A stretch of 32,000 nt of DNA, taken from NCBI GenBank assembly GCA_947451925.1, contig CANGAW010000015.1:13625-45624 (forward strand). Reading direction: 5' to 3'. The position numbers and the translations under genes were made by a program. The notes below the pieces were generated by a model. The model had not been told where the DNA came from. It made no database searches and was given only the letters and a program-made list of their open reading frames with translations. The DNA comes from Burkholderiales bacterium. Its GTDB lineage: Bacteria; Pseudomonadota; Gammaproteobacteria; Burkholderiales; Burkholderiaceae_D. This document shows, piece after piece, positions 10,650 through 24,791 of the stretch (the stretch's first letter is position 1; each line of letters begins with the position of its first letter).

Positions 10650-10863
10650 GCTTCTAAAATAAAACGGCGCAATTCAAATACGCAGTGAGTTGTCGTTGAT
10701 TCGCCGTAAGCAAGTATTGCAAACCTCTATAAGACGCCCGATTGGGAAGGCACCCTCAAAATTGCTGTCTATGGACTGTTAGCCATCAAGTTCAAGCTTA
10801 GACTCTCCGATGGCGGTAGTACTTCGTGAAGTTGAAACTACCTTAATATTTTCGCCAAACAGT

Positions 10864-10895
10864 AAAAAGCCCAGCTTTTTGAGCTGGGCTTTTTA
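10864..10895 (-). terminator. hairpin with flanking A/T runs next to the outermost tRNA-Asn 3' copy (probable ancestral tRNA terminator; bidirectional geometry)
   Basis: AAAAAGCCCAGCT-ttttg-AGCTGGGCTTTTT. Confidence 0.55.
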
Positions 10896-13566: not shown

Positions 13567-14075
13567 ATGACCGGATCCGGTCAAGCAATCCAAGCATCAA
13601 TATCAGACCACCCGCAACTACACCAACCTGAAAGCTTCTTTTAAGAATCGAGCGCTTGGTTTGTATGACTTTTAGGATTTCACCGCCGAAATCTTTTTTC
13701 CAGAGGATGATTTTCCATTTAAGAGCGATCAAAGAACTTACAAATGCCAATGCGAAGAACGCAAAAGTAACCATCATTGAGTCGCTAGCGAGATTTCATG
13801 TTATTTCAGGAATATTAACAAGCATCCCTTTCGCATCTGTGCTTTGTAAACAGCGCAGTATTCGGCGTTGGGTTAAGACTGAATTTTAGACAGCTATTCC
13901 CTCTTCAGCGCCTTCAACTTCTCGTACAAGGAGTCACGAAACCTCTGCGCATCTTTGGCGTAGTGAAGCCTTCTATGTCAGTTTGGGCAAACGGCAACTG
14001 TGTTCGATGGCGTAGGTGGAACGTTCGTGTTCAGGTCGACAGAGAAGGGGGCATAGCAATTCCGAACCCCAAAGC

Positions 14076-14108
14076 AAAAAGCCCAACCGATGAAGGCTGG
14101 GCTTTTTG
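14076..14108 (-). terminator. hairpin with A/T runs adjacent to att repeat B
   Basis: AAAAAGCCCAACC-gatgaa-GGCTGGGCTTTTTG. Confidence 0.45.
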
Positions 14109-16302: not shown

Positions 16303-16869
16303 TCATACCAGCTCAACGGCCCGGCGCAGCATGTCGTCATTGACGTCAATGTAGCGCTGGGTCACAGCAATTGATCTATGTCCTGCAAGGCTTGCTAGAA
16401 CACGAACACCGATACCTTTGCTGGCCAACGTGGTGATAAATGATCTTCGCATGCTGTGGCTACTGGCGCCTGCAACGCCTGCGCGTTTGAACAACCAATG
16501 AAAGTGTTGGGTTAGTACATTGGCAGTGAAGGCGCGTCGTCCCGCTGTGACGAATAGTGGTGTATCAGGTGTTAATGGCTGTCGCATGTCGATATAGTTC
16601 TGTAGTTCAGTTTGAAGTCGTTCAGGTAGGAATACTGTTCTCGCATGATGGCCTTTGGTCTGTGTAGCTGATAATCTTATTTCTGCTCTAACCTTTTGGT
16701 CAGCGTTCGCGATGTCTCTTATGCGAAGGCTGGCAATTTCTCCAACTCGCATGCCTGACCAATAACCCGTTAGCAGCATCAAGCGATTGCGAAGGGCGAA
16801 TTTGCGTGTTGCGATGAATGCGAGTACTTGTTCAAGTTCTGCGGGAGTGAGTGTTTTTGCTTGTGACAT
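16303..16869 (-). CDS. small (188 aa) catalytic-domain-only tyrosine recombinase, FimB/FimE-like in size and layout
   Basis: MRVGEIASLRIRDI (Arg I region), SSHSMRRSFITTLA (HxxR), LAGHRSIAVTQRYIDV (His and the Tyr nucleophile). There is no N-terminal SAM-like arm or core-binding domain. Confidence 0.8.
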   Translation of the reverse strand: MSQAKTLTPAELEQVLAFIATRKFALRNRLMLLTGYWSGMRVGEIASLRIRDIANADQKVRAEIRLSATQTKGHHARTVFLPERLQTELQNYIDMRQPLTPDTPLFVTAGRRAFTANVLTQHFHWLFKRAGVAGASSHSMRRSFITTLASKGIGVRVLASLAGHRSIAVTQRYIDVNDDMLRRAVELV

Positions 16870-16935
16870 TGTGATTTCCTTAAGTAAATAAAACTGCTGC
16901 TTATAGTGTGTTTTCTTTTGCTTAAAAGGTCGACC

Positions 16936-16961
16936 AAAACCCGTGAAGTTGGCGGGTTTTT
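16936..16961. terminator. hairpin flanked by A- and T-runs between the recombinase gene and the ORF-less region
   Basis: AAAACCCG-tgaagttgg-CGGGTTTTT. Confidence 0.4.
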
Positions 16962-16993
16962 ATTTGAGCTTTTATTTCAATGACTTATGCAAT

Positions 16994-17023
16994 CACCAAA
17001 GAAAATGTATATTTCCTTTGGTG
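16994..17023. promoter_or_regulatory. lox/FRT-like palindrome (13-4-13, or 11-8-11 with spacer ATGTATAT), candidate core site for the adjacent recombinase
   Basis: CACCAAAGAAAAT-gtat-ATTTCCTTTGGTG has one arm mismatch and lies 125 bp upstream of the recombinase start codon. Confidence 0.45.
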
Positions 17024-17515: not shown

Positions 17516-18047
17516 GTGGACGATCATTCGATGAGTTCGTAGCCACAGCACTTCGGCACAACCTGAATTCAGGTAAGGGCGGTTTCGCGGTCTCCTTTTA
17601 TGTGCAGCTGATGAAACGCAACCATTGTGAAAGCCGAAGTGCCGACTGTCACTGGTTTGCAAGTTGCCGTGTTAAGCAGGGCTTGCTCGTGACGCACAGG
17701 CGTGTGCCTGCCGTCTTTGTGCTGAATGATTGCTCCTTGCGTTAATCGGCCTGCAACAGCCAACAGCATCCCTGTGGGTTAGTAACGCTAAGTCTCTGCT
17801 ACCTCTCAGAATTTCCGTCCCTGCGAACATGTTTGACCAGGTTTAGGGCGCCAGTTAGCTGAGGGCGCTGCTCATTATCGGTAGTGATGTGTGCCGCAGG
17901 CTTTTCCTCTGGCTTGCGGCTACGTTTATTTATGCATCACCAAAGATCTCGTGAATTTTCCCGACATTTTCATAGGCATTTTCCCGGTCGACCTTTGGCA
18001 TAAATGGTAATAAATTAGTAACTCCAATAACCTAAACAGGAGGAGTT

Positions 18048-18488
18048 ATGTCCGTACTTAATTCGCTAAAACTGGTGGAAAGCCGCAAAAACACTAGACT
18101 TTCGCCTATCGTCCAGCGTCGTTATAAATTAGTTAATAAGTTGCATGAGCAGCTGGAGCTGTGCGAAGCCAGAAAAGCAGGACAGACCTACGCACCTAAG
18201 AAAATCAAGACCATCAAAAATCCAGCAACGGGAGAAAGCACAACCGTAGAAGCTGTGAAGCGGGTCAAAGAGTGGTTCTGGACCAACGATGCTGGCAAAA
18301 TCAACCTTGCTGTGAAATACGGTAGTCAAGTGCTGAGCTTTGCCAAGGGCAAGAACGCAATTGAAGTTGCAACAGCAGATGATTTGATTGCAGCACTTAA
18401 GGCGCTCAAGGACGCAGTTATTGCAGGTGAGCTTGATGCTCAGATTGAAGCCGTAAGTGGAGCGCTGAAAGCGGGGTTCGTTAAATAG
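18048..18488 (+). CDS. hypothetical protein (146 aa), basic N-terminal half
   Basis: Strong RBS AGGAGG 5 nt before the ATG. Clean ORF, no family recognised. Confidence 0.65.
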   Translation: MSVLNSLKLVESRKNTRLSPIVQRRYKLVNKLHEQLELCEARKAGQTYAPKKIKTIKNPATGESTTVEAVKRVKEWFWTNDAGKINLAVKYGSQVLSFAKGKNAIEVATADDLIAALKALKDAVIAGELDAQIEAVSGALKAGFVK

Positions 18489-24715: not shown

Positions 24716-24791
24716 TGGCTCCCCGACCTGGACTCGAACCAGGGACCTGCGGATTAACAGTCCGTCGCTCTACCAACTGAGCTATCAGGGA
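24716..24791 (-). tRNA. tRNA-Asn (anticodon GUU), 76 nt with encoded CCA
   Basis: Sense strand: TCCCTGATAGCTCAGTTGGTAGAGCGACGGACTGTTAATCCGCAGGTCCCTGGTTCGAGTCCAGGTCGGGGAGCCA. Cloverleaf folded by hand: 7-bp acceptor stem (with U5-G68), anticodon loop CUGUUAA, T-arm CCTGG/TTCGAGT/CCAGG. Very similar to E. coli tRNA-Asn. Confidence 0.95.

Follow-up and report, generated by a model that had tools for sequence, protein, structure and literature searches.

A conserved palindrome beside a 188-residue tyrosine recombinase gene in a tRNA-Asn island: the probable cis site of the recombinase and a candidate resolution module

What does a tyrosine recombinase that consists of a catalytic domain alone do on a genomic island that has a large integrase of its own, and what is the palindrome that stands just upstream of its gene? 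We addressed these questions in a 32,000-nucleotide stretch of DNA (the window) from a Burkholderiales bacterium (assembly GCA_947451925.1, contig CANGAW010000015.1, positions 13,625 to 45,624). The recombinase, a protein of 188 aa that we call the mini recombinase, is encoded within a 10.6-kb island at a tRNA-Asn gene (24716–24791), and the palindrome, S1, lies 125 bp from its ATG. The original prediction, made from the letters of the window, placed the protein in the size class of the DNA invertases FimB and FimE and proposed that, next to the large integrase, which is indeed present, it acts on a local site as a switch, a resolution site, or a mini-element. Comparison with related loci strongly supports a local site beside the recombinase's own gene, and we hold it to be highly probable that S1 is this site. 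Among the three proposed roles, resolution is the one that we favor. Site and gene may together constitute a self-contained, Xer-like or TnpI-like single-site resolution module that also represses itself, a reading to which we assign a probability of about 0.4.

The protein belongs clearly to the tyrosine recombinases. Its residues 6–178 match PF00589 at 95.8 bits, compared with a gathering threshold of 27.1, and it aligns to residues 99–274 of archaeal XerA and 109–287 of XerD, which correspond to the catalytic domain alone. In these alignments all six catalytic residues are present (R41, K72, H138, R141, H164, and Y173). The core-binding domain is absent: no SAM-like domain is matched, and the protein starts at the equivalent of XerA residue 99 or XerD residue 109. 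The description of a catalytic-domain-only recombinase was thus correct. In its model scores the protein is closer to Xer than to the FimB/FimE invertases. Its best NCBIfam matches are Xer models at 84–88 bits, each far under its cut-off (XerA 88.1 of 220, XerC 84.1 of 335, and XerD 83.6 of 330 bits, with XerS at 41.7 of 267). The FimB/FimE-type models PRK09870 and PRK09871 give 45 of 221 bits (E 9e-12) and 25 of 222 bits, and the IntI model TIGR02249 gives 61.3 of 265 bits, all likewise below their cut-offs.

This recombinase is very common, and no published description of its site or role came to light. A protein database search returned 3756 relatives, nearly all of them 188 aa long; database versions of 199–312 aa are over-called open reading frames (ORFs) that carry no extra domains. 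Genome matches at 56–76% identity come from freshwater Betaproteobacteria, including Limnohabitans, Polynucleobacter, Methylophilaceae, and some Burkholderia, and several copies are often found in one such genome. In Polynucleobacter, the genus of locus L035 (Polynucleobacter aenigmaticus), the gene occurs in 31 of 61 genomes, with up to five copies in each. No relatives were found in viral contigs, and PADLOC gave no defense-system match for the recombinase or its small neighbors. More distant homologs occur in lytic phiCbK-like Caulobacter phages, and these are remoter than the ones on Legionella plasmids. The genome of the window also holds a 50%-identical paralog (C17:8436–8945, locus L002). 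It was dropped as an informative comparison because it is truncated after residue 159 and immediately preceded by an IS630-like transposase fragment; its locus is likely a decayed second island.

S1 reads CACCAAAGAAAAT gtat ATTTCCTTTGGTG. Here the original prediction was right about the palindrome and its distance from the gene, and needed correction in its pairing and geometry. Read as 13-bp arms, the two sides pair at 12 of 13 positions rather than at all 13, the single mismatch being a G·T on the gene's strand. As single-stranded DNA, the site folds at −10 kcal/mol (z = −4.8). Palindromes of such strength are rare, with 4 distinct ones in the window against 0.275 expected in composition-matched shuffles. 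A full-site position weight matrix (PWM) sets S1 apart from everything else. Trained on 49 of the related loci, it finds no other match in the window, and among its 10 matches of at least 12 bits in the 3.0-Mb genome the two strands of S1 score 33.3 and 30.4, followed by 16.6 for the next.

Had S1 been a chance palindrome, homologs of the recombinase might never have had anything similar nearby, an outcome that the original prediction named as telling against it. The reverse was found. When the 185 nt before each homolog were printed, a palindrome was centered 115–160 nt before the ATG in nearly every related locus, and an equivalent of the site scores at least 13 bits in the interval from −260 to −80 in 72 of 77 related loci. 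Its place, geometry, and symmetry are all kept. Once aligned on their centers, 49 distinct sites are symmetric at positions 4–15 on each side and asymmetric in the central 6, a 12-6-12 arrangement. Positions 8–10 of the arms are an essentially invariant AAG/CTT, and the outer positions 12–15 vary yet stay complementary. This pattern favors 12-bp arms around a 6-bp center over the predicted 13-4-13 or 11-8-11. Moreover, the arms change together. Across 37 distinct sites, 84.7% of cells pair versus 67.5% in shuffles, none of the 500 of which attains the observed value, and 73 cells have changes on both sides versus 29.9 in shuffles. The covariation score of the arms is 0.41 versus 0.147 in shuffles, and it falls to 0.12 or less when the partner is slid by 1–3 columns. 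The arms of S1 in the window, CACCAAAGRAAA, can be set against the Limnohabitans variant, TACCAAATCAAA. S1 therefore has the geometry of a dif-type site, which comprises inverted arms of ~11 bp around a center of 6–8 bp in a single copy.

A second full site is present in only 2 of ~80 loci, L050 and L023. In L050, from Methylophilaceae, two full palindromes lie between −1297 and −124 from the recombinase start, 1142 bp apart in direct orientation and with differing 6-bp centers, and they enclose a single gene for a 344-aa integrase. One of the two second full sites is unlike the S1 of its own locus and similar to the S1 of other loci, and may mark a second module.

The site is inherited together with the gene. 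In all-against-all blastn comparisons of locus pairs that are 85–98% identical, the only shared block begins at the palindrome, about −140/−160, and ends at the stop codon, about +565/+600. The window and the 88%-identical locus L087 share three separate blocks, namely the integrase with orf165, the DUF6641 gene with 62 nt upstream of it, and the stretch from −158 to +558. In the pairs L050/L052 and L056/L077, both arms and the center are kept, and the adjacent 30 nt leftward are unrelated. In pairs that are 93–98% identical, homology extends no further than the outer edge of S1 on one side and the stop codon on the other, and S1 therefore belongs to the gene and not to its neighbors. S1 is also present in loci without a DUF6641 gene or a large integrase within 6 kb, and the simplest inference is that the recombinase itself recognizes S1. 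Of the mini-element proposal, one half is retained: site and gene behave as a movable block, but two flanking sites were not seen. Indeed, an element bounded by two S sites was rejected because the conserved block ends rightward at the stop codon, where there is no S-type site. The DNA directly after the stop codon is as variable as the DNA left of S1, so variability beside S1 is no proof that S1 generates it. A crossover inside the center of S1 with foreign partners is likewise unsupported, since the break lies at the outer edge in L050/L052 and L056/L077; partners with identical arms would still be compatible with these breaks. Two further roles for S1 were considered and set aside: that of an intrinsic terminator, given that neither strand has a consistent T run across loci and that the terminator scan raised no flag, and that of an operator of the DUF6641 gene, given that S1 is retained in loci that lack this gene.

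Between the outer edge of S1 and the gene lies a leader of ~155 bp, whose elements are listed in Table 1. Its AAGTCATTGA box could be an accessory site or, if the protein is a relaxase as discussed below, a nick region. The stem of the GC hairpin has compensatory changes in relatives (CCCGA/TCGGG, GCCCCG/CGGGGC, and CCCTG/CAGGG), and the structure resembles a terminator for transcription arriving from upstream; a simple terminator scan did not flag it. The pattern GGTCGNCC or GGTTGTCC, 17 nt, and CANACT precedes nearly all homologs and also DUF6641 genes, which makes the corresponding stretch of the window a putative promoter; a scan for the sigma-70 consensus did not call it. Two copies of the S1 half-site bracket this candidate promoter. 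In the window, box 1 is given as AAAGAAAA and box 2 as TTTTATTT, the two being mutually inverted, and in Methylophilaceae loci the pair forms a weak full-site match near −44. In the Limnohabitans group whose arms of S1 are AAATCAAA or AAATGAAA, box 1 becomes AAACCAAA. This co-change, which amounts to about one independent event, is suggestive of self-repression by the protein that binds S1.

Table 1. Coordinates of the mini recombinase gene, its site, and the features around them (positions in the window)
Feature	Position	Strand	Remarks
Mini recombinase gene	16303–16869	−	188-aa tyrosine recombinase, catalytic domain only; from the ORF list, PF00589, and the XerA alignment
Box 2	16884–16894	−	inverted half-site copy GTTTTATTTAC, after the −10-like hexamer and ahead of the ribosome-binding site
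Promoter-like stretch	16905–16935	−	GGTCGACC (16928–16935), 17 nt, CACACT (16905–16910)
Box 1	16910–16921	−	half-site copy GCAAAAGAAAAC in the promoter spacer; half-site PWM 14.4; kept in relatives
GC hairpin	16936–16960	−	ACCCG...CGGGT, then TTTT; −7.5 kcal/mol, z −2.1
AAGTCATTGA box	16977–16986	−	conserved; separated by 7 nt from the S1 arm nearer the gene; seen in the majority of loci across several genera
S1, palindromic site	16994–17023	.	arms 16994–17005 and 17012–17023; asymmetric 6-bp center 17006–17011
Polynucleobacter-1 RNA motif, RF01718	17738–17873	−	84.1 bits, E 1.3e-17; in the slot between S2 and S1, on the recombinase strand
S2, degenerate second site	17924–17965	−	GTCGGGAAAAT tcacgag ATCTTTGGTG, then GCATAAATAAAC; adjoins the DUF6641 promoter
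DUF6641 gene	18048–18488	+	PF20346, phrog_31551; divergent from the recombinase gene
Large island integrase, 463 aa	20997–22388	−	separate enzyme for integration at tRNA-Asn

The observations to be accounted for are the linkage of site and protein, the conserved geometry of the site, the symmetric covariation of its arms, the single site per genome, and the half-sites at the promoter. From the comparison of sequences we infer the following course of binding, cleavage, and reaction. Two recombinase monomers would bind the two 12-bp arms of S1, and cleavage and strand exchange would take place at the borders of the 6-bp center. With one S1 per island, the reaction would occur only when one molecule holds two copies, as when the excised island dimerizes or forms a concatemer, or when copies lie in tandem. 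The outcome would be reduction to monomers, as in Cre/loxP, in TnpI/IRS, and in XerS or XerH with a gene-adjacent dif. The same protein would also bind the two half-site boxes that bracket the promoter and would thereby limit its own synthesis. One full site per genome, together with a second full site in just 2 of ~80 loci, is the pattern of a resolution site. The plasmids of Legionella offer a further hint. The nearest plasmid homologs, of 194 aa on a Legionella longbeachae plasmid (L094, 74–658) and on pLPP (L091), are 37% identical to the mini recombinase and likewise lack a core-binding domain. They adjoin the ParB-RepB-ParA region of 130- to 150-kb conjugative plasmids that bear a MOBF relaxase, the usual place of a multimer-resolution gene, and thus support resolution.

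It is useful to compare this arrangement with known resolution systems. In the Xer systems (XerS/difSL of streptococci, XerH/difH of Helicobacter and Campylobacter, and archaeal XerA/dif), the catalytic domain is the closest to that of the mini recombinase in both models and structures, the site has inverted arms of ~11–12 bp around a 6-bp center, and there is one site per replicon beside the gene. In the XerS and XerH systems, indeed, the site lies beside the recombinase gene. By contrast, the mini recombinase has 188 aa and no core-binding domain and reaches 88 of the 220 bits required by the XerA model. It resides on mobile islands instead of at a chromosome terminus, and a genome can hold as many as five copies, whose sites all differ from one another. 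The TnpI/IRS system of Tn4430 and Tn5401 and the Cre/loxP system of phage P1 have a palindromic core site just upstream of a single recombinase gene and reduce multimers to monomers, which is also the task presumed here. As in TnpI/IRS, additional half-sites occupy the interval from core to gene and overlap the promoter, so that the mini recombinase locus has the single core site by the gene and the gene-ward half-sites that mark a gene-adjacent resolution module. However, the extra half-sites form an inverted pair ~17 nt apart and are not direct repeats, and the relationship of TnpI and Cre to the mini recombinase is at the superfamily level. Moreover, TnpI (284 aa) and Cre (343 aa) possess N-terminal DNA-binding domains.

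Several points weigh against resolution or against the strength of the case for it. Classical resolving recombinases have a core-binding domain, which the mini recombinase lacks. For each site we took the register that gave the best palindrome in its interval, and this choice inflates the symmetry measures somewhat. In the closest relatives (97% identical in amino acids) the arms of the palindrome match at just 10 of 13 positions. The island in the window has no recognizable replication gene that would explain when dimers arise; some relatives carry an HUH Rep or an AAA+ gene. Finally, a relaxase paired with its origin of transfer (oriT) would be expected to show most of the features that support resolution as well.

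That alternative, the most serious competitor and one that the original prediction did not consider, holds that the mini recombinase is a relaxase of the MOB_M type, like MobK, MpsA, and TcpM, and that the S1 region is the oriT of the island. Next to the hairpin the protein would nick one strand, and a conjugative helper would then transfer the island into another cell. We consider this somewhat unlikely, yet the evidence between it and a resolution module is not decisive. The recombinase-like relaxases MobK, MpsA, and TcpM are without the usual DNA-binding domains and have an inverted-repeat-rich oriT just upstream of the gene (PMC8152469, PMC6414798, PMC9299015). The mini recombinase shares this architecture, with neither core- nor arm-binding domains and with an inverted-repeat cis site directly upstream, and it resembles MobK of pIGRK, MpsA/MpsB of SGI1, and TcpM of pCW3 also in the islands with a separate integrase. 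Its Y173 is close in position to the catalytic tyrosine of MobK, at 179 (PMC8152469). According to a 2026 preprint, MOB_M genes are common in chromosomes, and 96% lie near an integrase (bioRxiv 10.64898/2026.01.13.699239). The layout fits as well, since a palindrome with compensatory arms and the strongly conserved box 7 nt from it are followed by promoter and gene. Even the Polynucleobacter-1 RNA upstream of S1 echoes SGI1, in which mpsA is preceded by a long RNA that stops at an inverted repeat (PMC9299015). Nevertheless, there is no BLASTP similarity to TcpM, the sole MOB_M member compared; proven members of the class are said not to resemble one another (PMC9299015). MpsA (~320 aa) depends on MpsB, a partner of which no counterpart was seen here. 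Conjugation genes are absent from these islands, accounting for 0 of 35 recurrent neighbor families, and are rare in the hosts. VirB4 and a coupling protein were not found in the window's own genome, and among the 61 Polynucleobacter genomes VirB4 occurs in 2 and a coupling protein in 4, compared with 31 that have the mini recombinase; this point is indirect, because helpers can be transient. In addition, distant homologs sit on plasmids that already carry a MOBF or MOBP relaxase, and in the lytic Caulobacter phages.

S1 might instead be merely regulatory or act at the level of RNA, either as the operator of divergent promoters or as a 3′-end hairpin of a transcript from the slot, the DNA between S2 and S1, with the substrate of the recombinase elsewhere. 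Half-sites on both sides of the recombinase promoter, and another one that carries a TAAATA motif at the DUF6641/RNA promoter, would suit an operator. The genes and RNA of the slot all point to S1, and a terminator-like GC hairpin comes next; compensatory changes in the arms suit a hairpin as well as a site bound by a dimer. But ~70 bp separate S1 from the −35-like element downstream of it, a long way for a repressor site, and the invariant AAG/CTT in both arms and the fixed 6-bp center indicate sequence-specific recognition beyond pairing. S1 is retained where the slot is empty (L064 and L084) or filled with unrelated genes, and the genome holds no other candidate substrate site. We thus regard a purely regulatory role as unlikely. 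The strand bias of wobble pairs was tried as a test of an RNA hairpin versus a DNA site and was discarded, the result being mixed and dominated by one related group. The slot itself raises the question of whether S1 could be an attI-like capture site at which the mini recombinase inserts or swaps cargo. Across loci the DNA left of S1 ranges from 0 to 5 kb and holds an RNA gene, a 203-aa ORF (L087), a 1661-aa ORF (L073), an integrase (L050), an HUH Rep, or nearly nothing (L064 and L084). The window and relatives have a degenerate S2 at the opposite end of the slot, and the single gene of L050 is enclosed by two full sites. These features would be expected of cargo capture, but the second full site is confined to the 2 loci named above, one of which maybe has a second module, and S2 has a full-site score of −5.8. 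The two sites of L050 differ in their centers and should not recombine with each other, and the equal variability after the stop codon arises without an S-type site. An integron-type array, in which each cassette is bounded by a site, is not the norm across the ~80 loci. Capture is, in our estimation, quite improbable. The remaining proposal, inversion of a local promoter segment by a FimB/FimE-type enzyme, is close to refuted. The mini recombinase is similar to these enzymes in its small size and reduced N-terminus, and it has the weak PRK09870 match noted above, yet this match stays far below its cut-off, at half the score of the Xer models. S1 occurs only once in the genome and hence has no inverted partner there or in the window; the sole second copy, S2, is weak and in direct orientation. 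There is neither an inverted site pair nor an invertible segment, and with the protein nearer to Xer, the predicted switch falls away.

Beyond S1 and its gene, the island context has features of its own. Of 81 loci, 57 have a DUF6641 gene no more than 6 kb from the recombinase, which makes it a frequent partner in the island backbone, and 37 have a member of the large-integrase family within the same distance. The outer arm of S2 (17930–17946) is a direct repeat that shares 17 of 18 nt with the gene-side arm of S1 and its flank, and an equivalent of S2, an arm followed by GC(A/T)TAAATA, is present in L087, L035, L045, and L065; from its PWM score, S2 is no competent full site. The RF01718 motif lies in the ORF-less kilobase between DUF6641 and S1. 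It was also found upstream of the homolog in L019 and is absent from 10 other loci. The regions upstream of the recombinase (16928–16935) and of DUF6641 (17986–17993) share a common build, with a compensatory GC hairpin, a short T run, GGTCGNCC, ~17 nt, and CANANT, and DUF6641 upstream regions in many loci have this same build. It suggests an island-specific promoter type or regulator shared by the two genes.

Two kinds of protein recur in the slot of relatives, both encoded toward the palindrome. Five relatives have a small HUH rolling-circle Rep (PF23343, 29 bits) with the motifs TLT, LH(L/Y)H, and (E/D)Y(M/I)TKE (L014:5104–5640, L017:5058–5624, L061:5015–5518, L070:4848–5507, and L071:5013–5516). 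A conserved protein of ~150 aa, which is absent from the window, occupies the slot in 24 loci (for example L075:1434–1916 and L065:5195–5644); it has no Pfam or PHROG match and bears the motifs AVRLY.N.KYGTTYGKG and ATN.DL. On the other side of the gene, short perfect GTC...GAC hairpins, such as TGTCGTGTTnAACACGACA, AGCGTCGCGTAACGCGACGCT, ACCGTCCTGAATCAGGACGGT, and TGTCGGTTTAACCGACA, come right after the recombinase stop codon in ~25 loci, at about +566 to +595 from the recombinase start, and also lie between other island genes (L043–L057, L007, L012–L024, L034–L049, L053, L054, and L065–L072). Their density is 0.155/kb in the loci compared with 0.0126/kb in the genome of the window and 0 on its contig, and homology blocks in Polynucleobacter end at them. 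Within the window, two strong GC-cored palindromes, at 10863–10895 (AAAAAGCCCAGC...) and 14075–14108 (CAAAAAGCCCAAC...), just precede two repeats of the tRNA-Asn 3′ end that bound stacked islands.

Overall, our work defines the likely site of a widespread recombinase, together with its natural variants, at base resolution, so that the question of resolvase versus relaxase is now directly testable. If the protein is a relaxase, the MOB_M class would extend to freshwater bacteria with streamlined genomes, and conjugative helpers, which were not found there, would be implied. Should it prove to be a true recombinase, it would rank with the smallest on record, and its natural variants would already offer a library of orthogonal sites. 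In its strongest form, which we think rather unlikely, this would mean that a 188-aa catalytic domain alone is a complete, self-sufficient recombinase on a 30-bp site, with thousands of mutually orthogonal recombinase/site variants that differ in the outer arms and the center, and several of them in one genome. Such enzymes could serve to cut island concatemers, whether made by rolling-circle replication or delivered by phage, into circles for the large integrase.

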